A stretch of DNA of 64,000 nucleotides. It comes from Patescibacteria group bacterium (lineage in GTDB: Bacteria; Patescibacteriota; Patescibacteriia; UBA1558; GWA2-36-10). Every line of letters begins with the position of its first letter. The first letter of the stretch is position 1. Position numbers and translations under genes: made by a program. Positions 16,082 to 64,000 of this stretch are shown here, piece after piece. Under the pieces are notes generated by a model. It did no database searches, had not been told where the DNA came from, and saw only the letters and a program-made list of their open reading frames with translations. The DNA lies in the NCBI GenBank assembly GCA_018819405.1, contig JAHJQF010000001.1, positions 226,097 through 290,096 on the forward strand, in the 5' to 3' direction.

Positions 16082-17568
<1,487 letters not shown>

Positions 17569-31926: not shown

Positions 31927-32280
31927 ACGCGTGCTGTAAAAAATTAAACGAAATTATTAGCAAAATAGTAAATGATAGTTAAACTTAAATTCAATAGATA
32001 AAAGGATTTTGGGCAATCAATTTACGTTTGCGTAAAGTCCGCTAACTGCGGATTTTTTAGCACCTTAAAATTAATCGATAGTAAGTAGTTTTTTAAATAA
32101 GTAGGCTTACGCGACTTTTTTAAAAAGCTACTTATTGCCGGTTAAGGCAATTGGACATTGAAAATTGAATAAACAATATCATAAATATCAACAAATGTTT
32201 ATGAGCATCTTTATAAGAAAATATATCTCGTATCCATAAAAAGAGAAAAAATCCATCAAAAGTTTTCAAAATTTTTGATG

Positions 32281-35390
<3,110 letters not shown>

Positions 35391-35596
35391 ATTAAAAATT
35401 TTGGAAGTTTTTGTGGCTTAAGATATATAAAGCTCATGAACATTGATAAACATGCTCGCCTCGCTAAAGCGAGTGCGCAGCGGGCAGGAATGATCAAGAT
35501 AATCTTGATGTTCCTGATCCTGATATTGTTTTTGGGACTGGTAATTTTTATCACTCCCTTAAAACAGTTTGCATAAAACAATACCTAAGAAGAGAG

Positions 35597-35720
35597 TATA
35601 GTTCTCGTGGCATTAGCGGATTGGTTACACCTGATCCCATCCCGAACTCAGTAGTTAAGCAATCCAGCGCTGATGGTAGTAGGACTTGACTCCTGCGAGA
35701 GTAGGCAGTCGCGAGAACTA
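35597..35720 (+). rRNA. rrf: 5S ribosomal RNA
   Basis: CCTGATCCCATCCCGAACTCAG...GCGAGAGTAGG; terminal helix tagttctcg/cgagaacta. Confidence 0.8.
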
Positions 35721-52268: not shown

Positions 52269-52536
52269 AAGTTTTATTTATTAATAAATTATATTGTCTA
52301 AATGAATATTTGTAATAATTATATCATCATGGTCATGAGGAAGCAATGCAGGTAAATTGTAAATGTGGTGTCGTATGATGTTGAATTTTTTAGTTAAAAT
52401 CTATTATTTAAGGGAATTTTTTGGGTATTTTTTAACCTTGACATAATGTAGTATTCATGATATAATATAGCATTAACCAAAAATAGGTCAATTCTGGCCA
52501 CTGGTTGTGTACCTGTCATCAGAAGAGAGGTGTGTA

Positions 52537-52707
52537 ATGAGTGTTTGGAGATATGTCGCAAAAGTCCTCAACATCTGGTCTGCCGCATTGGGATTGATCG
52601 GATTGATTGTAATCCGCAAAGATCCCACGAGTAGTTACTATCTGCTCGGTGTGGTAGCCTTGTCCCTGTTGGTTGCCATCAACTGCAAACTCAACTCCCC
52701 GAAGTAG
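52537..52707 (+). CDS. small hypothetical membrane protein; high-GC islet
   Basis: AGAGAGGTG SD; 2 TM; terminator gagaccc...gggtctc at 52722-52754. Confidence 0.35.
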   Translation: MSVWRYVAKVLNIWSAALGLIGLIVIRKDPTSSYYLLGVVALSLLVAINCKLNSPK

Positions 52708-52852: not shown

Positions 52853-53458
52853 ATGTACGGAATTAGTGTCTTAGTTGCCACTGTGCTCTTGATTGTTTCA
52901 GGTCTGGACTATGTTCGTCGGGCCTGGATTGGTCAGACTAGCCCTGTTCCAGCCACCTGGATTCTGATTCAGGTCACTCTGACATTGTCCTTCTGGATGT
53001 ATTGGAATAGCCCAGAGAAATCTTGGACTGCCAACATCGCTGTTACCGCTGGTCTTGTCAATGCCAGTATTATCTTCTTCGGGGTGATGGCTTCTCATAT
53101 CCGTCACCGTACCTTGAGGGTAGCTTTCAACAAATTGCAGGCCTGGTGTTTGGTTGGCGGTGGCGTGATCGTCATCTTCTGGCTGATCAGTCGTCGGCCG
53201 TTGACTTCCTACATATTGGTTCAGTGCATCGCTTTGGTGGCCTACATTGGTACGGTCAAGAAGCTTTGGACGGCCAAGGGAAGTAGTGAACCGCTGTTCC
53301 TTTGGGCTGCCGTGTTGTCGGCAAGTGTCATTGCGATTTACCCTGCTTGGGTAAAACACGACATCTTTTCATGGGTTTACATAATCAGGGCTGTGCCTTC
53401 CACAAGTTTTGTGATCTACTTGATCAGCAGAGCCAAAGCTAGGAATGTACACACTTGA
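52853..53458 (+). CDS. hypothetical multi-TM membrane protein; high-GC islet
   Basis: ~52% GC; 5-6 TM; terminator gaaccgcc...ggcggttc at 53462-53495. Confidence 0.45.
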   Translation: MYGISVLVATVLLIVSGLDYVRRAWIGQTSPVPATWILIQVTLTLSFWMYWNSPEKSWTANIAVTAGLVNASIIFFGVMASHIRHRTLRVAFNKLQAWCLVGGGVIVIFWLISRRPLTSYILVQCIALVAYIGTVKKLWTAKGSSEPLFLWAAVLSASVIAIYPAWVKHDIFSWVYIIRAVPSTSFVIYLISRAKARNVHT

Positions 53459-53547: not shown

Positions 53548-53578
53548 CTTGCGAAACCAGATACGCGGCGCTGTGAAT
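53548..53578. repeat. cassette-array repeat family, minimal (~35 bp) form (element A)
   Basis: gcgaaaccagatacgcggcgctgtgaat ~ consensus agtccgcgaaccgcatacgcggtgttgtgcgat. Confidence 0.6.
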
Positions 53579-53583
53579 AAAAA

Positions 53584-54453
53584 TTATATATTTATTTTAA
53601 CTTCTTTAATATTGGAAGCAAGCCCGCCGATTTTAATTTCGATAATGCTGTTATTTTTGATTTTTAGATTGGCCAATATTTTAGAAGGTCTTTTCATTGA
53701 ATATCCTTGTTCAAAAGTCAAATTGTTTATTTGTTTTTTTAAGATTTTTCCATATTTAAATAAATAACAAGCCAGAGCACCAGTAGCGGTTCCAGTGGCT
53801 GATTCTTCAGAAATACCATATAGTGGAGCAAAATTTCTACAGTAGGCGTTTGAATTATATTTTGTCTCCAAAGTAAATAAATGATAGCCAATAGCTTTAT
53901 GTTTTTTAGCAATATTAGAAATGGAGTTGATATTTGGTTTTATTTTATCTAAAGCGTCAATAGATTTGATAGGTATAAGAATGTCCTTTAAACCAGTTGA
54001 TACAATTTGAATAGGTAAATCATTGGGAATTATTTTCTCTGGGATGTTCAATGATTTCGCTATTTCTTTTTTTTCGAGTTTATTTAAAAACTTTGGTAAG
54101 TTTTGGTTCATGAAAATGGCCTTATCTTTCTTAATTTCAATATTAAGAATCCCAGATTTTGATTCCAAAGTATAATGACCTGGCTTTAAAAGCTTTTTTT
54201 TAGCCAATAAATAAAAAGTAGCAATCGTTGCATGGCCACATAAATTGATTTCCTTATTTGGAGTAAAGAATCTTATTTTGAGAGTAGCTTTGTTTGATTT
54301 TTGAACAAAAGCGGTTTCAGAAAAAGCCACTTTTTTTGCGATTAATGACATCTGTTTTGTGGAAAGATTGTCTGAATTCAAAACTACTCCGGCAGGGTTA
54401 CCACCATTGGTTATTTTAGAAAATGCATTGAGTGTAAAGACTTTGATGTTCAT
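53584..54453 (-). CDS. PhzF family (phenazine biosynthesis-like) isomerase
   Basis: GNPAGVVL...SETAFV...CGHATIATF PhzF/DapF-fold motifs; internal Met chosen as start. Confidence 0.7.
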   Translation of the reverse strand: MNIKVFTLNAFSKITNGGNPAGVVLNSDNLSTKQMSLIAKKVAFSETAFVQKSNKATLKIRFFTPNKEINLCGHATIATFYLLAKKKLLKPGHYTLESKSGILNIEIKKDKAIFMNQNLPKFLNKLEKKEIAKSLNIPEKIIPNDLPIQIVSTGLKDILIPIKSIDALDKIKPNINSISNIAKKHKAIGYHLFTLETKYNSNAYCRNFAPLYGISEESATGTATGALACYLFKYGKILKKQINNLTFEQGYSMKRPSKILANLKIKNNSIIEIKIGGLASNIKEVKINI

Positions 54454-54489
54454 ATTTGGCACGACCCGTTCCAACTGGTCAAAGCTATT

Positions 54490-54864
54490 TTAGTCATCAT
54501 TGGCCACACATTGGCCATTTTGGCACTTTACTGTTAATCCGACATTATAGCAATCAAATTCTACCGGCGGGCAATTCTTATAATTGTAGTCTTTTGTTAG
54601 TTGTTTTATAGGCGCCTCATCGGCATCTTTATTTGCTAAATAGTAGCAACCAAAAAGATAGTCCTCTACAATCAGACAATCAGAATCAGATTCACAATAA
54701 TTCATAGCTGCTGTTATTTTATAGGATTTCTTGAATAAATCATTGCAACTTAATTCGTTATTATTTATGGTAGGAACCTGCTCAGAATTTTCTTTATTGA
54801 TACTAGAACAGCCTGTTAATAAAAGCACAAAAATAATTAAAAAAATGTTAATGTTTTTTTTCAT
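54490..54864 (-). CDS. small Cys-rich lipoprotein
   Basis: Lipobox LLTGCSS; multiple Cys pairs. Confidence 0.5.
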   Translation of the reverse strand: MKKNINIFLIIFVLLLTGCSSINKENSEQVPTINNNELSCNDLFKKSYKITAAMNYCESDSDCLIVEDYLFGCYYLANKDADEAPIKQLTKDYNYKNCPPVEFDCYNVGLTVKCQNGQCVANDD

Positions 54865-54920
54865 AGTTTTATATTATTCATTAAATTTTTATATATTTTT
54901 GTAATATCTCTTTCAGTTAA

Positions 54921-55030
54921 TAGGTCAGTATATGCGAAGTCGTGATTGAGCGAATATGATATAACAGTGAGTTTGTTGCACCGGCATATTTGAGAAAGAA
55001 CGTTTTGCCTTAGCGGACGTGAAAAATAAA
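54921..55030. repeat. cassette-array repeat family, long form (element B)
   Basis: tatgcgaagtcgtgattgagc...palindromic core...gaaagaacgttttgccttagcggac...aaataaaattatt. Confidence 0.7.
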
Positions 55031-55031
55031 A

Positions 55032-55736
55032 TTATTGTTCAGTAGGAGGACAATAGTGATATTGATTTGCTTCGCACTTGTAAGTCCCATCAGCATAACC
55101 AACTAATAAACTATCTAGATTGGATCCATTCCATTTGTGACCATCAAATGTTCGAGTATTTTTTTTAATGCAAGCAAATCCTTTTAGGCATATTGGGTCG
55201 TCTTTTAAAAATTCGCCAGCCTGACAAATTCCTCCTTTTTTAGCATAATCAATAGAAAGATTTATGCATCCTTGTAAGTCACCAGTTTTTTCATTTACTG
55301 TGTTTGCGCAACGGTCTATATAATATGTCATGTCGGCGCATTCTTTATAAGAGTTGGCATTTTTAGATAACTCGTATTCTTGTTTTTTTAATCTATTTAT
55401 TGAAATTTCACTTCTAACGTCTATTAATACGTATAATGCAAAATTAAATAAAATTAATTCAGCAATAATTGCCATTATCGAAATAATAAAGAACCCTTTT
55501 TTATCTTTACTTTTTCCGCCTTTTATTATAATCATTAATATAGTTATAAATATTGGGAAAATAATAAATAGCCAAAGAGGTATCACAAAAGCATCAAATC
55601 CTTCGAGTACACCTTCCTTTAATCCAATATATAGTAGATATATGGTAAGAATATAGAAGGCGACACCTAGTGATGAATAAATAATAAGAATTGTCCTAAA
55701 CATTTTTTTATTAATTTTTTGGTTATTAATTTTCAT
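55032..55736 (-). CDS. hypothetical membrane protein with C-terminal Cys-rich extracytoplasmic domain
   Basis: 4 TM helices then Cys-rich ~110-aa domain. Confidence 0.45.
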   Translation of the reverse strand: MKINNQKINKKMFRTILIIYSSLGVAFYILTIYLLYIGLKEGVLEGFDAFVIPLWLFIIFPIFITILMIIIKGGKSKDKKGFFIISIMAIIAELILFNFALYVLIDVRSEISINRLKKQEYELSKNANSYKECADMTYYIDRCANTVNEKTGDLQGCINLSIDYAKKGGICQAGEFLKDDPICLKGFACIKKNTRTFDGHKWNGSNLDSLLVGYADGTYKCEANQYHYCPPTEQ

Positions 55737-55770
55737 GACTTTATGTTTGTTAAAAATAATTTTGTTCTTA

Positions 55771-55872
55771 GATCACGAACCGCATATGGGGTGTTGCTCG
55801 CCTGCCAAAGCCCCGTCTGCCATGACTGGCATGTCGGGCAGGTACACTTGGCGTAGCGGACGAGTGCTATGT
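55771..55872. repeat. cassette-array repeat family, composite form (element C)
   Basis: gatcacgaaccgcatatggggtgttgctcgcc + nested palindrome + ggcgtagcggacgagtgc. Confidence 0.6.
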
Positions 55873-55963
55873 ATCGTTCACTTTAACAAATATTTTTAGG
55901 AATAGGGGATTGTCTCGTAAGATCAATCCCCGAAAGAGGCTGGTTTTAGTTGTGTTGGGCTCG

Positions 55964-56134
55964 TTATTTAGAGCCTTCTTTTGCCTGGCGAAGCATAGTA
56001 TCAGCCGTCATTCGAAGTGCGTGTCTGTAATCTTCGATGTAGGTGGGTAGGAATCTAGTGTGGTGTTCACCGGGCTTTGTTGGTCTTGATATAGACTTAC
56101 CTTTCAATAGTTCTCTTGCGTCGATGCATCTCAT
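55964..56134 (-). CDS. small (56 aa) hypothetical protein; high-GC; possible HicA-like toxin (weak)
   Basis: AGGAGGTGG SD 5 nt upstream of ATG; not in ORF track (<60 aa); ~48% GC; sits alone between two repeat elements. Confidence 0.35.
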   Translation of the reverse strand: MRCIDARELLKGKSISRPTKPGEHHTRFLPTYIEDYRHALRMTADTMLRQAKEGSK

Positions 56135-56228
56135 ATCCACCTCCTTTCAGCCTCCTAAAAGTATTTGTTAAAGAAACATTAATATATAATCTTAGTTATT
56201 AAATATTCTCTTGTCAATTTAGAGCGAT

Positions 56229-56337
56229 ATTTCATCTAACAGGACAGCGTATGCGAAGTCGTGATTGAGCCTATGTGGTAAGATTCGCGTAGCGACCACA
56301 TAGGTGAAAGAACGATTTGGCCGAGCGGACTGCAAAA
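56229..56337. repeat. cassette-array repeat family, long form (element D)
   Basis: atttcatctaacaggacagcgtatgcgaagtcgtgattgagc-ctatgtggt..accacatag-gtgaaagaacgatttggccgagcggactgc; abuts NUDIX stop codon. Confidence 0.75.
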
Positions 56338-56877
56338 TTAATAATTTTTATTACACAGAAATATATTTAAGGCAGCTACACTAATGCCGCAGTTTATTTC
56401 ACCTTTTTCAGTCATATTTTTTACTTTGGCTATTTTTATGTTTTTTATTTCAGAAATATCTTCATCACCCCCTTTAAAGTCTAGGCCTATTTTTGACTTG
56501 TCTAAGTTGGTGGCTAAAAGTACATGAACAAAAGTGTCTTCATGACCAGGAGCAATGAAAAAGCCACCTATTTTTTTTATGTTTTTTGCTTTTAGTCCTG
56601 TTTCTTCAAATAATTCTTTTTTGCCCTCTTTTAAGATATTTTTCCCTTCCATTGAGCCGGCTGGTAATTGCCACACTTTTTTATTTATTGGGTATCTGTA
56701 TTCTTTGGTAAAAAATATAGATTTGTCATCATCTAAAGCTATTATTACTACACCAGAAGATTTTTTCAAAAAACTGTATATCCCTTTTTTACCATTTGGC
56801 CTTATTACAGTATGGTCTTCTATTTTAAACCAGGGGTTTTTATAGGATATTTTTGATTTTATTTTTTTATATCTCAT
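56338..56877 (-). CDS. NUDIX hydrolase (ADP-ribose pyrophosphatase-like)
   Basis: Nudix box GSMEGKNILKEGKKELFEETGL. Confidence 0.75.
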   Translation of the reverse strand: MRYKKIKSKISYKNPWFKIEDHTVIRPNGKKGIYSFLKKSSGVVIIALDDDKSIFFTKEYRYPINKKVWQLPAGSMEGKNILKEGKKELFEETGLKAKNIKKIGGFFIAPGHEDTFVHVLLATNLDKSKIGLDFKGGDEDISEIKNIKIAKVKNMTEKGEINCGISVAALNIFLCNKNY

Positions 56878-56892
56878 ATTTTTATATAAATA

Positions 56893-56927
56893 GTGCTCGG
56901 TATACCATTTGTAGATGTACCGAGCAC
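56893..56927. repeat. simple 12-bp-stem palindrome between cassettes
   Basis: gtgctcggtata-ccatttgtaga-tgtaccgagcac. Confidence 0.5.
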
Positions 56928-56939
56928 AGAATAGTTTTA

Positions 56940-57353
56940 TTACACATGTAATTCTTCATCACAATTTATGCAGCGCAATTTTTTCTTACCAGCCTTTTCA
57001 TCAACTACAGCGTAGAGATGATTACATTGTATACCTCTACGCAAGTGAAAGTGGCTGATCATTGCTCCCATCAGAGCGTAGTTAGCGATATCTAGAAAGT
57101 CTTCTACTATACTTTCATCAGCGATGGTTTCATCATCTGAAAAAAGTCTAGCTAGTTTGTCACGTATCCTTACGAATATTCCTACAACTCCATACTCTAC
57201 AAAAACACTTTTATAGGCGTTATTTTTTTCTATGAAAAGACCCAGTGCTTCTCTCAAAATGGCCTGATACCTTTTGGTCATGGGAGGATCTTCAGGCTTG
57301 GGCAATTCTTTGTCAGCGAACTTCAAGGTGTAGCTGCCTTTTTTCCTAGTCAT
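56940..57353 (-). CDS. hypothetical protein, possible MazG-like all-alpha NTP pyrophosphohydrolase with C-terminal zinc ribbon
   Basis: EALGLFIEKNNAY...ESIVEDFLDIANYALMGAMI resembles MazG EExxE/D helices; CNH...CINC ribbon; low certainty. Confidence 0.3.
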   Translation of the reverse strand: MTRKKGSYTLKFADKELPKPEDPPMTKRYQAILREALGLFIEKNNAYKSVFVEYGVVGIFVRIRDKLARLFSDDETIADESIVEDFLDIANYALMGAMISHFHLRRGIQCNHLYAVVDEKAGKKKLRCINCDEELHV

Positions 57354-57444
57354 TTTTGACTCCCCTTAGCTTGATGGTGGTAGATTATTTAAGGAACTAT
57401 TTCTAGTAAAGTTATACCATTATGCTTAGTGTATGTCAATTTTT

Positions 57445-57479
57445 CAGTCCGCGAATCAGATACGCGGTGTTGGGCGATG
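57445..57479. repeat. cassette-array repeat family, minimal form (element E)
   Basis: cagtccgcgaatcagatacgcggtgttgggcgatg. Confidence 0.65.
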
Positions 57480-57501
57480 TAAAAATAAATTCCTTTTTTA
57501 T

Positions 57502-57840
57502 TTAATTTGTTGCAATTCCAAAGTATAAAAATTTTACATCCAAATCAAATGGATTAGTTTGAAAATGTTTTTCATTTGGTTCAATTGTAATGCAGTCGCC
57601 CTCACTTACTTCTGTTTCATTATTATTGATATTAAAGATAGCCTTACCTGATATAATAAAAAATACCTCATACATTGTATCATGCGCATGACTTTGAGAA
57701 GATTGGCCTGGTTTTAAAATAGCCTTGCTAAATGTCATTAGTTGTGGAATTTCTCCTTTGGCTATTAAAATTTTCTTTTTTATTTCTGGATTATGGGAAA
57801 CACTATCTCCAGGAATATTTTTTATACTTACTATTTTCAT
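57502..57840 (-). CDS. cupin-domain protein
   Basis: HAHDTMYEVFFIISGKA...EVSEGDCITIEPNEKH cupin motifs. Confidence 0.7.
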   Translation of the reverse strand: MKIVSIKNIPGDSVSHNPEIKKKILIAKGEIPQLMTFSKAILKPGQSSQSHAHDTMYEVFFIISGKAIFNINNNETEVSEGDCITIEPNEKHFQTNPFDLDVKFLYFGIATN

Positions 57841-57859
57841 AATATAGGAATTTATTTTT

Positions 57860-57990
57860 ATTTCATCTAACGTTCATGACTATGCGACGTTTGCCAGTGG
57901 TAAAATGCGCTGAAAGCGTACCACTGGCAAATGTGGGAGAATGACTGAGCGAAGCGAAGGAATGAACCGCGTAGTCATTGTTAGGCGATG
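57860..57990. repeat. cassette-array repeat family, long TIR-bounded form (element F)
   Basis: atttcatctaacgttcatgactatgcgacg - perfect 13-bp palindrome tttgccagtggta...taccactggcaaa - ...gaaccgcgtagtcattgttaggcgatg. Confidence 0.7.
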
Positions 57991-58003
57991 TTACTTAAAA
58001 ATT

Positions 58004-58738
58004 TTACTTTATGCACTTAATAAGTAATCTTGCTTTAAAGAATTTTCCAATTATTGGTAAATAACTTATAAAATGAAAAACAGATAAGAGTTTTATATAA
58101 TGGGGCAAATAATAGATTACTATATTTTTGAATCCAACTTTCTCCAATAAATTGATATGTTTTTTTACATTTCTTATCCCAATATGTCCTACCGACTGTT
58201 TTAGAATTCCATTTTTTTTGCATAACTCAAGAAAATAATCCCCATTTGGAGTATGGAGATAGAGCTTCCCGTTTGGCTTTAATGTATTTCGAATGGCTGT
58301 AAAAATAGAAATGAAATCATCGTCATAAACATGTTCACTGAAGTCCATAGAAAAAGCTTGATCGAATTCATTATCGTGTTCTTCTGAAAATTTGATTATA
58401 TCATTACAGTTGAACCGAGTATTTCTAATATTAAGTGCTTTATGTCTTCTTTTTGCAAGATTTATGAATTGTTCTGAAAAATCTACACCAGTATAGGATT
58501 TTACTCTATTGTGAATCAGCTCACCCCAAAGACCATTTCCGCAACCGTATTCGACAACACGAAAATCTGAATTGAATTTAATGGGCTTTAGTAAATTTTC
58601 AAGTCGCTTTTTTTGTCGAAGATAAGTTTTAAAATAGGGATTATTTTCTTCTCCACTATTAATTAACTCCATCCATTTATGGGGTGCATCTAGCTGGTAA
58701 ATATCTTTTAATTGTTTTTTTGATAATTTGTTTTTCAT
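58004..58738 (-). CDS. class I SAM-dependent methyltransferase
   Basis: Motif I VVEYGCGNGLWG; motif post-I/II spacing typical. Confidence 0.75.
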   Translation of the reverse strand: MKNKLSKKQLKDIYQLDAPHKWMELINSGEENNPYFKTYLRQKKRLENLLKPIKFNSDFRVVEYGCGNGLWGELIHNRVKSYTGVDFSEQFINLAKRRHKALNIRNTRFNCNDIIKFSEEHDNEFDQAFSMDFSEHVYDDDFISIFTAIRNTLKPNGKLYLHTPNGDYFLELCKKNGILKQSVGHIGIRNVKKHINLLEKVGFKNIVIYYLPHYIKLLSVFHFISYLPIIGKFFKARLLIKCIK

Positions 58739-58763
58739 TTTAATTGGTTAAAATTTTTAAGTA

Positions 58764-58875
58764 ATTTCATCTATCAGACAAGCGTATGAAAAGTCGTGAA
58801 CGAGTAGCGTGCTACAATTTCTGCGAAGCAGAGCACGCTAGGAGTCGAAGGGTTTGGGTGAGCGGACAAATAAAA
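58764..58875. repeat. cassette-array repeat family, long form
   Basis: atttcatctatcagacaagcgtatgaaaagtcgtgaacgag - tagcgtgct..agcacgcta - ggagtcgaagggtttgggtgagcggacaaataaaattatt. Confidence 0.75.
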
Positions 58876-59415
58876 TTATTCTAAGACATACTCCCAGCCA
58901 GGTTGCCAAGATTTGGTATTTCTCCAATCTTCATCAATAGCTTCTTGCCAAGTTTTCCCTTTAGTTAACACCTCTAAGGCTAATTGAGGAGCTTTGTGTG
59001 CCATGATGGCTATATGTTTATTATTATAGTTTTCTTTCAAAAAGTCCAGAAAGTCTTTTATTCTATCTTCTACATTTTTTAGACTCTCGCCATTAGGAAA
59101 TGGAGTGTCTACATATTTTTTGTAATCAACATTTTTTTCATTAGATTGATTGAAATCTCCATAGTTGCATTCTCGTAATCTTTTATCTTGAGCAATTTCA
59201 TATTTACCTTCAAATCCTAAATTAGCAGAGTCTACCGCTCTTTTTAGGTCTGAACAAAACATAATATCAAATTTTTTATTGGCAACCTGGCTTCCTAAGT
59301 CTTTGGCTTGCTGTATTCCTAATGCTGACAACTCTCCTGGCGCCCAACCAGTGCTGAGATTTTTTTCATTGTCGGCTGTTGTTCCATGAACAAAATATGT
59401 TATTTTTACACTCAT
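58876..59415 (-). CDS. histidine phosphatase superfamily (phosphoglycerate-mutase-like) protein
   Basis: N-terminal ITYFVHGTTADN (RHG-like catalytic motif variant), ...AIMAHKAPQLAL.. Confidence 0.6.
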   Translation of the reverse strand: MSVKITYFVHGTTADNEKNLSTGWAPGELSALGIQQAKDLGSQVANKKFDIMFCSDLKRAVDSANLGFEGKYEIAQDKRLRECNYGDFNQSNEKNVDYKKYVDTPFPNGESLKNVEDRIKDFLDFLKENYNNKHIAIMAHKAPQLALEVLTKGKTWQEAIDEDWRNTKSWQPGWEYVLE

Positions 59416-59427
59416 ATAATTTTATTT

Positions 59428-59461
59428 AGTCCGCGAACCGCATACGTGGTGATAGGTGATG
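59428..59461. repeat. cassette-array repeat family, minimal form
   Basis: agtccgcgaaccgcatacgtggtgataggtgatg. Confidence 0.65.
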
Positions 59462-59578
59462 TACATTTTTTCTTAAACTTTGGAGAATTTTATTTCTTAA
59501 AAGTAGAATTTGATTTTTATCAATTTTGGCGAGGGCGCAGAGGGGGTTAGGGGGTGAATGCGCCCGAGCCGAAAAAGA

Positions 59579-60871
59579 TTATTTTAATAAGTCGTCTAAT
59601 CCACAGGAAAGAAGAGCAGCTTTGTTTAGTAATATTTGTTCTTTTTGATTTAAATTATCAGCAGTCATTCGAATTACTTTAGTAGTTATGATTTCGCCTA
59701 ACATTATATGGTTGGTTTTTTTAAAATATTCTTCAATTTTTTTATAGAATAATTCTGCATATTGCATTAATTTTTCCTGTGAAGGAGGATTACTAGTCCA
59801 GCCATTGCTATTAAATTTAAATAGTTTTTTTATTTTTTCACTAGTTTCAATTAATAAATTTCCTTCGCCGAAATCAATCCAGTAATCACTAATGCGAAGT
59901 ATAATCTTAACTTGTTTATTTTCAGTGGTGTTATACTGATACATAAAAGAGAATATATCTGTATGAAAATCTTGGTATACATTTATTTTTTCGAGAGTAG
60001 TTACCGTGTAGATTTTATATTCTTCTAGTGATCGTAAATAGCTAGTTCGCCAATTAGCAAGCCAATTGTTTATGAATGTTTGATCTATAAATAGAGGTGT
60101 TAAATCTTGTTTCAAGTTATCGTCAGTTTTTTCATTATTTAATATCTTGATAGTTATTTTATTAAAGAGTTCTTTAGGATCAGCAAACTTAATATCTTTC
60201 GCTGCCAGATAGTCTAAATCTGGTATAATTTTTTTTGACATGTACCATAGTAAATCATAAATATCACGTCCTTTTTCTTCATATATACTTTTGTCAACTC
60301 CACGTTGCCCACGTAAAAAAATAGCGGCAATTTTGCTGGCCATAAGAGCCGATAGATTATATGTTTTTATGGCAAAAGAGAATTGGTCTTTATTTTTTGG
60401 TATGTTTTCGGTGACTACTGTTTTAGGAGGAACAAAATGGTTTAAATCAATTTTAATGTGTACTTGTTTAGAGGAGAAATCCAACCCTAACTCTTCACCT
60501 ATATGAAATTTTAGTGTGAGGCCTCTATTGTTAGTAACCCCAATTGTTAGAAAATCAGTGTCAATATTATAAACGTTTTTAAAATGAGCTACGATTTCTT
60601 CCTTTAATTTATCTAAGAAGTCATTTGTGATTGCATGGTCTACTTCGAAATCTAAATCGACCGACATTCTGTTTAGTTCATGACATATGCGAAGTGCAGA
60701 GCCACCATACATAATCCAATCGCTATATTTTGGGTGATGATATATAAAATTTAGTACATAAAATTGTAGCTCTTCTTTTATAGCATTACGTTGCGTCTCC
60801 GCAGTGGCGCCTCCATATGCAGATATTTCTTCTAGCTTTTTTTTAAGCGCTATAATAATTTGATTATTCAT
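59579..60871 (-). CDS. AbiEii/AbiGii-like nucleotidyltransferase toxin (DUF1814), unusually long (430 aa)
   Basis: YGGSALRICHELNRMSVDLDF matches AbiEii GG(T/S)AL...R.S.DLDF motif; overlaps upstream partner gene by 8 nt. Confidence 0.6.
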   Translation of the reverse strand: MNNQIIIALKKKLEEISAYGGATAETQRNAIKEELQFYVLNFIYHHPKYSDWIMYGGSALRICHELNRMSVDLDFEVDHAITNDFLDKLKEEIVAHFKNVYNIDTDFLTIGVTNNRGLTLKFHIGEELGLDFSSKQVHIKIDLNHFVPPKTVVTENIPKNKDQFSFAIKTYNLSALMASKIAAIFLRGQRGVDKSIYEEKGRDIYDLLWYMSKKIIPDLDYLAAKDIKFADPKELFNKITIKILNNEKTDDNLKQDLTPLFIDQTFINNWLANWRTSYLRSLEEYKIYTVTTLEKINVYQDFHTDIFSFMYQYNTTENKQVKIILRISDYWIDFGEGNLLIETSEKIKKLFKFNSNGWTSNPPSQEKLMQYAELFYKKIEEYFKKTNHIMLGEIITTKVIRMTADNLNQKEQILLNKAALLSCGLDDLLK

Positions 60872-61499
60872 GACGTATATAATTATTTATCATTAAGTAG
60901 AATTTATTTTTTTCCTCTTCATCCATTTCATTTATGTCAATACGTAGATCATTAATTATTGAGTCAACATCTTTAATCTTTATGCCTCGGAATTGTTTAG
61001 TTTTGAAGTAAAGTAGATCAAATAGAGCTTTAGATGGAGGGGCAATAAAAAATTCAAACTTATCTTTTATTAAAGAAAAATTTGAGAATAAATCTTTTTT
61101 TAAAGATCGATATGAAAAAGTACCTATCTTAGTTTTGTAGTTTCTAGTGACCTTTGGTGTGACTGATATTGTGGTGTGTATTATTTCAGTAGAAAGATTA
61201 TAATACTGGAGTGCTGTCCACGAGCTTATATAAGATGGTTTTTTAATGATATTAGCAAGGAAGAAAGAATAGGATAGATTATTTTTATTACTATTATAAA
61301 AATGCGTTGATACATATAAGCCCCTTTTGAGAGGAATAATTTCTTTATCTTTTAAGAAGCGACTTATATATGTGTTAAGAGTGCTATCTTTTAGATTGTA
61401 GCTTTTTTCATTTTTGCCTAATTGGTAAATACGCTCTTTACTGAAATATGGTAAAGATTTTAATTCTTCAAGTAGATTGTTTTTTGATTTACGTTTCAT
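60864..61499 (-). CDS. AbiEi-like antitoxin / transcriptional regulator (type IV TA partner)
   Basis: YISSWTALQYYNL resembles AbiEi S.ESAL..HGL motif; N-terminal basic wHTH-like region; operonic with AbiEii-like gene. Confidence 0.5.
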   Translation of the reverse strand: MKRKSKNNLLEELKSLPYFSKERIYQLGKNEKSYNLKDSTLNTYISRFLKDKEIIPLKRGLYVSTHFYNSNKNNLSYSFFLANIIKKPSYISSWTALQYYNLSTEIIHTTISVTPKVTRNYKTKIGTFSYRSLKKDLFSNFSLIKDKFEFFIAPPSKALFDLLYFKTKQFRGIKIKDVDSIINDLRIDINEMDEEEKNKFYLMINNYIRHE

Positions 61500-61663
61500 A
61501 TGTATGACATAATTGTATTATATCTGAAATACCATGTCAATAGATATATATTAATTTGTCTAATATTAGGTAAAATACCATAAACCCCCTAACTAAAATA
61601 AATAAAAATCAAATTCGTATCGTTATCAAAAAAGCTGGTCTAAAACCAGCAAGGAAAAATGTA

Positions 61664-61775
61664 TTTCATCTATCAGACGTGCGTATGCGAAGTCGTGATT
61701 GAGCAAATATGATAAAATTATTTGAAATCATATTTGCGAAAGAACGATTTGGGTGAGCGGACTAAATTATTTGCC
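61664..61775. repeat. cassette-array repeat family, long form
   Basis: atttcatctatcagacgtgcgtatgcgaagtcgtgattgagc - aaatatgat..atcatattt - gcgaaagaacgatttgggtgagcggactaaattatt. Confidence 0.75.
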
Positions 61776-61843
61776 AAGTATTATTAAATGGATGAGAGGA
61801 CGACGGGATGCCGTCCTCTCTAGATTCTTGAGGTACACGATGT

Positions 61844-62083
61844 CTATTTTCCGGAAGACTTAGTAGGCCGATTGGGTATTCGTGATATCTGCCAGAGGCA
61901 GAATGCGGTGCCAAGTACCACCACTGCTACCAACACAGGCAGTACTTTGATACTTTCCAGCAAGTAGGAAAGTACTTGTCCTCGCTGTTCGGCACCCATG
62001 ATTGCCAGTAGCACGATCGTCAAGACGATCAGCGTGCCAAGAAACAGCCAGAAAGGACGGCTACTTTTCTTCTCGGTTTTCAC
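61844..62083 (-). CDS. small hypothetical membrane protein; high-GC
   Basis: 2 TM helices; ~52% GC; between repeat elements. Confidence 0.4.
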   Translation of the reverse strand: MKTEKKSSRPFWLFLGTLIVLTIVLLAIMGAEQRGQVLSYLLESIKVLPVLVAVVVLGTAFCLWQISRIPNRPTKSSGK

Positions 62084-62165
62084 CTCGTTACCTCCTAGTT
62101 GAAGAACAGTGACTTTAGCTCACTTTTAAAGTATATTTCAAATTTATTTATAGGGCAAATAATTT

Positions 62166-62199
62166 AGTCCGCGAACCGCATACGCGGTGTTGTGCGATC
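62166..62199. repeat. cassette-array repeat family, minimal form
   Basis: agtccgcgaaccgcatacgcggtgttgtgcgatcg. Confidence 0.7.
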
Positions 62200-62227
62200 G
62201 TGTGATTTGTGTTATTTTAGTAATATT

Positions 62228-62866
62228 ATGGCTTTATTTAAAGGGAAGAAAAAATCCGAATTATCAGTAAAATCTACAAAAATTGCAGTTTTTATAGATG
62301 CAGGAAATTTATGGGAAGTCTATAAAAAAATTGGGAAAATGATTGAAGTTAATAAACTTGAATCTTTTTTCAAAGAAAAATTTTCAGGGGATATTTTCAA
62401 GATTTTTTATTATGTTGCCTATCCAGAAGACGGGACTAGACCTCAGGTGCAGATTGATAAAATTCATAAATTTTTAACATATTTGAAAAAAGGATTGGAA
62501 TTTGAAGTTATAAAAAAACCATTAAAAACAATCAACCTGAGGGATAAAAAAGGAGAGCTTATTTATGATCAAGATACCGGAGAAATAAAAACAAAAGAAA
62601 AGGGTAATCTTGATGTAGAGTTTACGATAGATGTAATTAAATATTCCACAGCATATGATATAGCGGTATTTGTTACTGGTGATTCGGATTTTTTGCCATT
62701 GATTAGTTATTTAAGAAATCTGGGTGGTAAGGCTAAAAAAGTATATATATTTTCTACAGAAGGATGCATATCAAACGAACTCAGGACTGGTGGTGATGGG
62801 TATTTTGATCTTAAAAATTGTGTAGAGATACATGGTTGTGATCTTAAGAATCAAGAGGATAGATAA
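62228..62866 (+). CDS. NYN-domain (LabA-like) protein; inverted (plus-strand) cassette
   Basis: IAVFIDAGNL...IAVFVTGDSDFLPLISYLRNLGGKAKKVYIFS NYN motifs; followed by hairpin terminator. Confidence 0.65.
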   Translation: MALFKGKKKSELSVKSTKIAVFIDAGNLWEVYKKIGKMIEVNKLESFFKEKFSGDIFKIFYYVAYPEDGTRPQVQIDKIHKFLTYLKKGLEFEVIKKPLKTINLRDKKGELIYDQDTGEIKTKEKGNLDVEFTIDVIKYSTAYDIAVFVTGDSDFLPLISYLRNLGGKAKKVYIFSTEGCISNELRTGGDGYFDLKNCVEIHGCDLKNQEDR

Positions 62867-62897
62867 TAAAGTAAAAAGATAATATAGATATACAAAA

Positions 62898-62926
62898 CAC
62901 CCTCGTGCAGAGCACGAGGGTGTTTC
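62898..62926 (+). terminator. rho-independent terminator
   Basis: acaccctcgtgc-aga-gcacgagggtgt + TTT. Confidence 0.65.
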
Positions 62927-63051
62927 TATGGTGTTTTAACCCCTTAAGTTTTATGGCTAAAACCCAAGGACATTATTAGTTTATATAATATGCCAAAATT
63001 TGTCAATACTTATGAAAAATGGCATAATTTTTAGTCACAAATCACATGTCG

Positions 63052-63188
63052 TACAACAGGCCAGCATTTGCGACGTTGCCGACGAAATAGCCGTGATAAA
63101 ATTATTATATCATCACGGATATTAGGAGGCAATGTAGGTGAAGCGACGAGGCACGAGGAGTGGAACCGCAAATGCGGTGTTGTGTGAT
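63052..63188. repeat. cassette-array repeat family, long TIR form (element H1); contains SD + ATG-TAG mini-frame
   Basis: acaacaggccagcatttgcgacg ... ccgtgat-aaaattattat-atcatcacgg ... aggaggcaatgtag ... ggaaccgcaaatgcggtgttgtgtgat; near-identical to H2. Confidence 0.75.
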
Positions 63189-63313
63189 ATTAAATTTTTC
63201 TTGATTTGATAGGAGCTTGTGTTGACGGAATAAGCGAAATATTATATATTATTATGAAAACCAAAAATTGAGCAATTCAGCTCATTGGTTGTTCTTACAG
63301 AAGGGAGAGCGAG

Positions 63314-63688
63314 ATGATTAAGAATTGGATGCTTTACAGTCTGTGGCTGTTATTGGCCACAACCAACGTCGTGATGATTTCCTATCACACCATTCCTTCG
63401 GCCATGATAGTGGGTCTGTGTGTCGGCGTATTACTAGCCGCAGCTATGGAAGCAGAAAGTCCCACCGAAGCTGGTGATCTTTACCTGGGTTTTGTGGTGA
63501 GCTTCATTTTTGGAGCTTTCGTTTTCCTGAACTTTCTGCTCGGCTGGAACCTGGTCGAAAAGGTGAGTGGCGAATACGCCAAAGAGTTGCACATGGGGAT
63601 ATTGATCCCCTTGAGCTATTTCAGCACCTTGTTGACGGCATCAATTAACAAGTTTTCATCTCTGCATCGTCAGGTGTCTGTCGGATGA
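63314..63688 (+). CDS. hypothetical membrane protein; high-GC; flanked by direct repeats H1/H2
   Basis: 3-4 TM helices; ~52% GC. Confidence 0.45.
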   Translation: MIKNWMLYSLWLLLATTNVVMISYHTIPSAMIVGLCVGVLLAAAMEAESPTEAGDLYLGFVVSFIFGAFVFLNFLLGWNLVEKVSGEYAKELHMGILIPLSYFSTLLTASINKFSSLHRQVSVG

Positions 63689-63830
63689 TCTTCCGACATA
63701 GTGAATGTACATTTCCATCGTTTGGGGACGGAGTTTCAGAAAGCTTCGTCCCTTTTCATTTTGTATAAAATAAAAAAATCTCATTGGAGATTATGTGAGT
63801 AAAGAAAAATTTAATTTCATACAACAGGAC

Positions 63831-63958
63831 AGCATTTGCGACGTTGCCGACGAAAAAGCCGTGATAAAATTATTATATCATCACGGCTATGAGGAGGCAA
63901 TGTAGGTGAAGCGACGAAAGAATAGAGGAGCGGAACCGCAAATGCGGTGTTGTGTGAT
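63831..63958. repeat. cassette-array repeat family, long TIR form (element H2)
   Basis: ~90% identical to H1 over ~130 bp. Confidence 0.75.
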
Positions 63959-64000
63959 GTCGAATTTTTTTTAGGTATTCATTATTATTTAGGGGAATTT

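Follow-up and report, generated by a model that had tools for sequence, protein, structure and literature searches.

We describe here a stretch of 64,000 nucleotides from the genome of a Patescibacteria group bacterium (positions 226,097 to 290,096 of contig JAHJQF010000001.1, assembly GCA_018819405.1), called the window below, in whose last 12 kb small genes are interspersed with palindromic repeats. The region from 52.3 to 64.0 kb is very probably the integrase-distal part of a complete chromosomal integron-type element, with its cassettes on the minus strand. The repeats can be identified as a family of attC sites, more than half of the complete ones in the window (four of seven) holding genes inside, and the candidate integrase gene lies past the window end on the same contig, beside an attI. 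Judged from its sequence, the element appears to work like an integron without two of the features that define one, the additional domain of the integrase (IntI) and the extrahelical bases of attC, and it would place integrons in the candidate phyla radiation (CPR).

A sequence-only reading of the same DNA had pointed out a cassette array from about 53.5 kb onward, in which compact minus-strand genes are each followed by a member of one repeat family. The family is real and far above chance: when up to three mismatches were allowed, AACCGCATACGCGGTGTTG gave 6 matches in the 64-kb window against 0.01 expected, and a 26-mer taken from the long form of the repeat gave 3 against 0 expected, all of them on the plus strand and within the last 12 kb. 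Profiles of the two repeat arms (P and S, defined below) searched with nhmmer gave no match in positions 1–52,000, the family being confined to 52.3–64.0 kb, and viral contigs scanned with the arm pattern yielded ten single matches, which is about the number expected by chance. The true start of the array is at about 52,290, earlier than had been proposed, and is occupied by a degenerate remnant (X0) and two inverted genes. The compact genes and their Pfam assignments hold (PhzF, NUDIX, cupin, S-adenosylmethionine (SAM) methyltransferase, His phosphatase, AbiEii and NYN).

The repeats appear in two forms, a long form of about 100 nt (54912–55020, 56231–56332, 58766–58869 and 61665–61764) and a short form of about 35 nt (55768–55803, 57444–57478, 59427–59460 and 62164–62198), which alternate strictly as A, B, C, D and then F, G, H, I. 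Read on the plus strand, a site has four parts: an arm P, ATTTC-ATCTAAC-6 nt-GCGTATGCG; a variable hairpin V; a junction motif, AT(T/G)T(G/A)GG(T)G(A/G)(A/G); and, usually after a second hairpin (stem 2), an arm S, GAA-CGCATACGC-GGT-GTTGTGC-GAT. The canonical top strand is the minus strand of the window, on which P is the R'-L' arm and S the R''-L'' arm; the long form consists of P, V and the junction motif, and the short form is S. Because the 9-bp L box of every long form finds its pairing partner in the short form that follows, site-specific compensations included, the two forms are to be taken as the two arms of one attC, split by one or two genes lodged in the loop of an internal hairpin. 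The sequence-only reading had explained the forms of about 35 bp as deletion or fusion derivatives of the long one; this explanation fails because all S arms have a 3-nt spacer and all P arms a 6-nt spacer. Three sites, E (57862–57990), J (63048–63194) and K (63816–63964), are unsplit, each a full four-part element, and DNA folding gives them the shape of long imperfect hairpins. The window thus holds 7 complete sites, 4 of them gene-bearing, and 3 remnants.

Core sites, which had been thought only weakly supported, are well supported on the minus strand, where the R'' boxes read GCCCAAC, GCCTAAC, GCACAAC or ACACAAC and the R' boxes GTTAGAT, GTTGTAC, GTTGTAT or the compensated variant GATAGAT. 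The predicted fold is Y-shaped, with an R stem, an unpaired central spacer (3 versus 6 nt), a 9-bp L stem and two apical hairpins, which are bridged by a conserved, unpaired, purine-rich motif present in 68 of the 81 sites of the family. These sites measure 92–286 nt, with a median of about 200. The R'', L'', L' and R' boxes, whose definition had been suggested as a check, can be delimited, and the L stem has no extrahelical bases. Other arrangements were tried and rejected. When a long form is regarded as a whole attC, its 3' end (…GAGCGGAC) stays unpaired with its own 5' arm and the folds are weak and inconsistent, and when a short form is regarded as an inverted, internally deleted long form, the S-type 3-nt and P-type 6-nt spacers found throughout are left unexplained. 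The plus strand was also considered as the top strand, with the longer, 6-nt-spacer arm on the left (the classical extrahelical bases are on the R''-L'' arm), and was rejected: the minus strand is indicated alike by the orientation of the genes, by where the integrase lies and by the box of P type at attI.

The pairing of the arms is supported by covariation. Over 66 distinct sites, pairing reaches 98.8% in the L helix, which has no bulge and in which 7 of the 9 pairs show compensatory changes, and 81.5% in the R helix; none of 500 shuffles reached the observed pairing scores. An L box fits its own partner better than that of the neighbouring site (25 vs 4, p = 3e-5), and this holds also for the gene-bearing sites alone, across gene-sized inserts (8 vs 2). 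The outer seven bases of the R box, in contrast, fit the neighbouring site, across the intervening gene, better than their own partner (27 vs 10, p = 8e-4). In integron cassettes the first bases (TTRRRY) derive from, and pair with, the R'' box of the cassette's own attC. The double dissociation, L boxes matching within a site and R boxes between neighbours, corresponds to the classical cassette-boundary signature of integrons, as read from these alignments. The R-box match by itself cannot tell which of the two R boxes is cut, and it is attI, described below, that settles this point.

Genes nested inside attC sites are a regular property of the family. An open reading frame (ORF) is enclosed by 31 of the 81 sites (38%) and fills the insert in each case, in cassette orientation in 25 of the 31. 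The 25 inserts in stem 2 that were tested are placed exactly between the junction motif and S, and every one of them is flanked by an inverted repeat of 9–27 nt anchored at the junction, whose halves pair much better with each other than with those of other sites (score 14.8 vs 8.2, p = 6e-13). These clamp arms are evidently still a helix, because the repeats differ among sites and yet include compensated variants (GCGGAC/GTCCGC, GCGAGC/GCTCGC, GCGAGT/ACTCGC and GCGAGGAC/GTCCTCGC). The V hairpin can also receive a gene, as in positions 21–411 of L107, a contig from the same sample. Either apical hairpin may therefore hold a whole gene in its loop, so that a cassette would offer room for genes in two places, ahead of the attC and within it.

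The nested genes might instead have been brought by a separate mobile system that targets the loops of attC hairpins, or by illegitimate insertion, and so not be intrinsic to cassettes. IS1111-attC elements and group IIC-attC introns are known to insert into classical attC sites, and in our data many inserts share the same ends, GCGGAC(T)AAATAAAATTAT, with no empty version of the GCGGAC-type hairpin among its 12 occurrences. We consider this origin unlikely, though deserving of attention, on the basis that no transposase, reverse transcriptase or other mobility gene was found in any insert and an ORF fills each of them, that other inserts have unrelated flanking repeats, that the other hairpin has also been entered (L107), and that cassette orientation predominates among the nested ORFs.

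Related arrays were collected by one S-arm pattern scan of species-representative genomes. The same family was found in several metagenome-assembled genomes (MAGs) of Patescibacteria and in three MAGs titled Gammaproteobacteria, so that the search of other genomes proposed as a check gave a positive answer. A tblastn search with IntI1 detected IntI-like genes beside the arrays in L020, L025, L048 and L052, on the side and strand that an integron predicts; the outcome with the IntI1 and XerC queries was independently confirmed by NCBIfam, PDB and fold searches. With an alignment of four integrases as query, 52 further metagenome integrase loci were retrieved. In 55 integrase loci, 95 arm matches were obtained, 94 on the upstream side of the integrase with one shared orientation and a single one downstream, the sequence searched amounting to 152 kb upstream and 273 kb downstream. 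About 23 contigs end 150–500 nt upstream of the integrase, as expected at repeats. The contents of the arrays are almost all different among relatives: of the 16 cassette ORFs in the window, only 1 was met again in related arrays totalling about 0.7 Mb.

No integrase gene is present in the window, and the sequence-only reading had expected the array to continue past the 3' edge to a recombinase and an attI beyond 64 kb. Both were found there, through a homologue search and a look-up of accessions by exact sequence. The integrase of this genome, MBU1202720.1 (P0003), is the closest homologue on a large contig, with 80% identity to the enzyme of L025; it is encoded on the same 1,035,872-nt contig as the window proteins MBU1202691.1 and MBU1202693.1, at higher coordinates, and the protein of its first cassette, MBU1202719.1, with locus tag KKH39_01610, is also on that contig. 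Because accession numbers rise with window coordinates, we infer about 22 genes between the window end and the integrase. The CALIN-like label (cluster of attC sites lacking an integron integrase) that had been offered describes the window taken alone, and does not hold for an array that continues to an integrase about 22 genes on. The sequence around the integrase is given by L107 (a 26-kb Logan contig), which shows, in this order, a gene-bearing attC (P, a V hairpin that holds an 81-aa gene, then the junction motif, stem 2 and S), the first cassette gene (MBU1202719.1), attI, the integrase gene, a ribonucleotide reductase gene and other housekeeping genes. The same layout, a recombinase gene divergent from the cassettes at the array end, is repeated in L020, L025, L048, L052 and the metagenome loci, in agreement with the arrangement that had been predicted.

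Almost every integrase examined has an attI directly upstream of it. This consists of a box of P type, ATTTC-RYYYAA|C (G|TTRRRY on the opposite strand), and then some 90 conserved nt that include TTGACA and the integrase start; the box was seen in at least 20 loci, L107 of this genome included. The stretch behind the box (…GTATATGCG…) is similar to the L portion of P, which gives attI the look of an R'-L' arm in duplex form. With a P-type box at attI, the top strand is therefore the minus strand, R' corresponds to the P box in reverse complement, and the cassette genes point away from the integrase gene. Overlapping the integrase promoter is a sequence aimed into the cassettes, TTTACA-17-TACGAT, which resembles a promoter (a consensus match only). 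Just upstream of attI, ORF-less first cassettes were found in L055, L076, L077, L078 and L103, and in the same loci a mini-palindrome having R boxes only, GATAAGTGGAAA...TTTCCACTTATC, is present beside attI.

The three MAGs titled Gammaproteobacteria (L019, L053 (CAYOCJ010000001.1), L036, L052 (CAYHYG01), L020 (CAZWYP010000001.1)) carry the same attC family; two of the three have the same integrase clade, and in one of them unsplit sites, each about 200 nt in size, extend over at least 16 kb. Because every named integrase homologue is from Patescibacteria, these titles may be wrong; if they are right, the attC family crosses phyla. In another related array, past its distal end on JBAZKN010000003.1, we noticed the C-terminal part (zinc-ribbon region) of a large serine recombinase (L028, 7371–7943, minus strand).

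The integrases of these arrays measure 288–305 aa and the clade as a whole spans 283–339 aa, with the catalytic residues R-K-H-R-H-Y invariant across the clade, and are named generically in databases (tyrosine-type recombinase/integrase), with one entry named site-specific tyrosine recombinase/integron integrase. An IntI with the extra alpha-helical insertion had been expected, and this expectation was not borne out. The additional domain specific to IntI is the I2 helix region near patch III (Messier & Roy 2001). The alignment with VchIntIA is split there, residues 193–222 of the query standing opposite 171–241 of IntI4, so that about 41 residues of the additional domain are missing, and an AlphaFold model (mean predicted local distance difference test, pLDDT, 82.7) has no helix at residues 195–213. 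Alignment and model together identify the enzyme as one that lacks I2. Five longer clade members that were aligned owe their additional residues to the N terminus, the C terminus or an insert of low complexity in this loop; P0038 and P0040 (alignment A4) have low-complexity insertions of 17–28 aa in the loop at the I2 position, a loop that evidently tolerates insertions.

From these features the following mode of action can be proposed. Each cassette ends in an attC whose R''-L'' arm is next to the stop codon of the gene and whose L'-R' arm is at the far end, the two arms pairing with each other. The tyrosine recombinase encoded about 22 genes past the window end would recombine attC sites with each other and with the attI by its own promoter, exchanging strands within the R' box (G|TTRRRY), and cassettes would in this way be added, removed and reordered. 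Its substrates are most likely folded single strands of attC, as in integrons. The choice of strand and the block on a second, chromosome-breaking exchange must rest on other features than the classical ones, since I2 and extrahelical bases are both lacking; the junction motif, together with the unpaired spacer and its asymmetry, may serve here, by analogy with the CTX-phage hairpins used by XerC. By the same analogy, a hairpin imitating a duplex core site, its centre left unpaired, might be what prevents the second exchange. Genes might enter the hairpin loops through a separate targeting element, but no insert contains a mobility gene.

More tentatively, and with somewhat less conviction than doubt, we suggest that Patescibacteria possess a distinct and active class of integron, which either never had I2 or has dispensed with it, which has no extrahelical bases, and whose sites accept whole genes in their terminal hairpins and have been selected to fold around them; it would have two cargo slots, perhaps exchange at both R boxes, and strand choice and the block on the second exchange by spacer and junction motif. 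If this is true, the class would supply the natural intermediate so far missing between Xer-type recombinases and classical integron integrases, or else represent a different solution.

Several points weigh against our reading of the region as part of an integron-type element. Sites in the window have decayed in several places (X0, S0, the B remnant, the degenerate R' box of A and the L-box mismatch of C/D), and the distal part of the array may be largely frozen; folding across loops of 0.4–1.2 kb is expected to be inefficient. The core of site H/I and its nested gene are also present in L029 with 89% identity, and this core with its 79-aa gene is joined to the NYN gene in the window and to a 356-aa gene in L029. 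These different outside genes count here because exchange at R' alone does not predict them; either exchange takes place at the R'' box as well or the modules are reshuffled by homologous recombination between conserved arms. The integrase scores 206 and 227 bits, matched in two stretches, with TIGR02249 (integron integrase), below the cut-off of 265, and passes NF040815 (recomb_XerA_Arch, described as tyrosine recombinase/integron integrase) with 231–235 bits against a cut-off of 220; because it is below the former cut-off and above the latter, a Xer-type duplex mechanism is possible. The contiguity of the window end and L107, moreover, rests on consecutive accessions and a contig of the same size, not on sequence read through the junction.

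The decayed remnants, including A with AAT and the mismatch in C/D, the poor folding to be expected of a 0.4–1.2 kb loop, and an integrase without the domain needed for single-strand recombination in IntI1 and VchIntIA would all suit a fossil array, that is, true attC descendants and an integrase gene that have lost recombination, with gene-bearing sites dead and disrupted by unrelated insertions. We regard such a fossil as quite improbable: the catalytic residues are invariant across the clade, attI and the arms are conserved among genomes with integrases of only 52–58% identity, and array contents are almost completely different in related genomes. The compensated clamp repeats and the covariation of L boxes across inserts likewise suggest that pairing has been maintained.

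Another possibility is that the recombinase is the XerA-type chromosome-dimer resolvase of the cell and that the array is merely adjacent to it. The NF040815 result fits this, and the best sequence match in PDB is XerA of P. abyssi. Adjacency, divergent orientation and a conserved attI of R'-L' shape recur, however, in dozens of genomes; the C-terminal IRSPL(D) tail aligns with the tail of VchIntIA, while the XerA alignment ends short of it; and the best structural match is VchIntIA (2a3v, E = 7.5e-16), followed by archaeal XerA. A mere resolvase is very improbable on these grounds. The fallback considered by the sequence-only reading, an island made by a family of miniature inverted-repeat transposable elements (MITEs) or repetitive extragenic palindromes spread among accessory genes with no link to a recombinase, is hardly credible: the repeats are indeed palindromic, intergenic and modular, with inverted repeats flanking the nested genes, but there are no other copies in the 64-kb window, the arms stand almost without exception on one side of the tyrosine recombinase gene in one orientation, partner-specific L-box covariation and neighbour-specific R-box matches are unexpected for transposing MITEs, and the flanking inverted repeats differ from site to site, so that one transposase could not recognise all of them. 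The other fallback of that reading, a cassette system of non-integron type, is likewise unsupported.

The element with its integrase can be compared with the sedentary integrons of Proteobacteria, such as the Vibrio cholerae superintegron with its attC sites (VCR) and VchIntIA. Both have a tyrosine recombinase gene divergent from a long array, an attI ending in GTTRRRY beside it, and cassettes that are mostly promoterless and single-gene, followed by an imperfect palindrome RYYYAAC...GTTRRRY with L''/L' pairing and a variable terminal structure; both have an array-wide homogeneous attC family, obey the same rule of cassette-boundary complementarity, and contain toxin-antitoxin cassettes and inverted cassettes with their own promoters. 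The element described here differs in its host phylum, in an integrase without I2 or additional domain, in an L stem without extrahelical bases, with a 3-nt surplus in the central spacer of the R'-L' arm instead, and in sites that are longer (92–286 nt), Y-shaped, provided with a conserved unpaired motif and gene-enclosing in 38% of cases. The classical extrahelical bases sit on the R''-L'' arm and set the choice of strand, and sites without them are depolarised, with the R'' box used as well (Bouvier 2009, PMC2727003). Archaeal integrons (Ghaly et al. 2022, PMC9668308) are similar in having been found outside the classical bacterial hosts by genome-resolved metagenomics, small-genome symbiont lineages included; the IntIs of archaea reportedly retain the additional domain and their attC sites fold in the classical way, whereas both are altered here.

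CTX phage integrating at dif by recombinases of the XerA/XerC type is comparable in another respect, having a recombinase without I2 and a hairpin site that mimics a duplex core, with two arms around an unpaired centre, which has been discussed as a possible way round the second strand exchange (Escudero 2020, PMC7790495). CTX integrates a single element at one chromosomal site through the host Xer proteins, whereas a dedicated recombinase, its own attI and many-cassette arrays are seen here; compared with Xer/dif, the integrase passes the XerA model, yet its context is an attI and a cassette array. Foreign DNA inside attC is known also from IS1111-attC elements and group IIC-attC introns. Those elements encode a transposase or reverse transcriptase of their own and leave the site disrupted, whereas here ordinary cargo (NUDIX, His phosphatase and membrane proteins) is in the apical loop and the arms are still paired.

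In the literature covered, which was incomplete so that a prior description is possible, we found no report of integrons in Patescibacteria or CPR, Parcubacteria and Saccharibacteria included, or of I2-less integrases with attC arrays. According to the accepted view, the I2 helix docks the extrahelical bases and blocks the second strand exchange, which makes the folded single-stranded attC usable, and natural intermediates are lacking (Escudero et al. 2020, PMC7790495). With a large clade of IntI/XerA-like recombinases that lack I2 and stand next to attI and arrays of hairpin sites, sites having the cassette-boundary signature but no extrahelical bases, one can directly test how integron recombination arose and what it minimally requires, and variable terminal structures that carry genes bear on the building of cassettes and on the maximum size of attC. 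Tools that require the C-terminal signature of IntI probably call these elements CALINs or miss them.

The individual features of the array in the window are as follows, on the minus strand unless noted. At the distal end, X0 (52290–52385), a remnant of J/K type (direct-repeat families D1 and D6), has lost its left half but retains the junction motif, an R''-L'' arm in decay and, of the central hairpin, the 3' arm. A promoter/leader module with TTGACA-17-TATAAT (52386–52512, plus strand), similar to 63241–63292, 63967–64000 (D10, D19) and L025 4013–4156, precedes two inverted cassettes on the plus strand, which encode a small membrane protein (52507–52707) and a 201-aa membrane protein (52853–53458), with weak or absent Pfam matches. 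S0 (53550–53578, fuzzy match S53557) is an orphan R''-L'' arm, GCGAAACCAGATACGCGGCGCTGTGAAT, with no partner arm. It is followed by the PhzF-like cassette gene (53584–54474; PF02567, E = 3e-61) and a gene for a 124-aa protein (54490–54864), a putative lipoprotein as read from the sequence. The gene-bearing site A/B (54912–55803) encloses a 234-aa membrane protein gene (55032–55736); its R' box is degenerate (AAT for AAC), and its L boxes have a site-specific compensatory A:T pair. Next to it is an armless remnant (element B, 55804–55866) consisting of a hairpin and the junction motif, and then a 58-aa ORF (55964–56140) bracketed by a 21-nt inverted repeat (I24, 55881–55901 and 56153–56173). 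The whole of 55804–56173, remnant and bracketed ORF, resembles a decayed gene-bearing site.

Site C/D (56231–57478) encloses two genes, a NUDIX gene (56338–56877) and a gene for a 137-aa protein (56940–57353); its L boxes are only partly complementary (GCG vs CAG), and it may be a recombinant, perhaps a fusion of two gene-bearing sites. The cupin cassette gene (57502–57840; PF07883, E = 6e-15) is followed by the unsplit site E, with R'' GCCTAAC, R' GTTAGAT and an 11-bp L stem, which folds at -27 kcal/mol with R, L and central stems. After the cassette gene for a class I SAM methyltransferase (MBU1202691.1, 58004–58738), site F/G (58766–59460) encloses the His-phosphatase gene (58876–59415), with the flanking inverted repeat GCGGAC(T)AAATAAAATTAT immediately next to the start and the stop of the gene; the R boxes of this site, ATCTATC and GATAGGT, are a compensated variant. 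The AbiEii toxin gene (MBU1202693.1, 59579–60871; PF08843, E = 9e-26) and the gene of its 211-aa partner (60864–61499) form a two-gene toxin-antitoxin cassette. Downstream of AbiEii, a GC-rich hairpin segment (59448–59576) has 78–85% identity with L029, L040 and L022, and a related motif, AAATCGTTTCCGGAGCG.AGCGGAGGAAACA, is found near attI in L059, L074, L076 and L103.

Site H/I (61665–62198) encloses a GC-rich gene for a 79-aa membrane protein (61844–62083) with a perfect 19-nt inverted repeat, GCGGACTAAATTATTTGCC (I17). Just outside the R' box of H is a 90-nt stretch (61573–61664) with a hairpin, GCTGGTCTAAAACCAGC, which is conserved with L029 and L022 despite different adjacent genes. The NYN gene (62192–62866, plus strand; PF01936, E = 8e-17) and a GC-rich gene for a 124-aa membrane protein with its own promoter/leader (63314–63688, plus strand) are inverted cassettes, as the sequence-only reading had held. 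Between them is the unsplit site J (R'' ACACAAC, R' GTTGTAC, -27.1 kcal/mol), and after the second comes site K, 90–92% identical to J (D4); both sites were matched by the nhmmer arm profiles. The last letters of the window (63965–64000, plus strand) are the start of another promoter/leader module, with the array running past the edge; L001, which reaches 110 nt past the window, continues with TTGACA...TATACT, a leader and a ribosome-binding site.

This promoter/leader module of about 125 nt recurs after attC sites (52386–52512, 63195–63300, and 63965–64000 continuing into L001 1800–1948), and each copy in the window faces an inverted, plus-strand cassette gene; the copy in L025 (4013–4156) is between the last attC and the integrase. 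The ORFs at 61844–62083, 63314–63688 and 55964–56140 are clearly richer in GC than the array around them, which suggests a recent foreign origin. The window as a whole is a low-GC chromosome segment (about 37% GC) with 11 tRNA genes, and an Rfam search of it gave only rRNAs and tRNAs. The rRNA genes are unlinked, with 16S at 16082–17567, 23S at 32279–35393 and 5S at 35603–35717; the gap between 16S and 23S is 14.7 kb, with tRNA genes after the 16S, and the 23S match of 3115 nt, compared with a model of 2925 nt, suggests an insertion.

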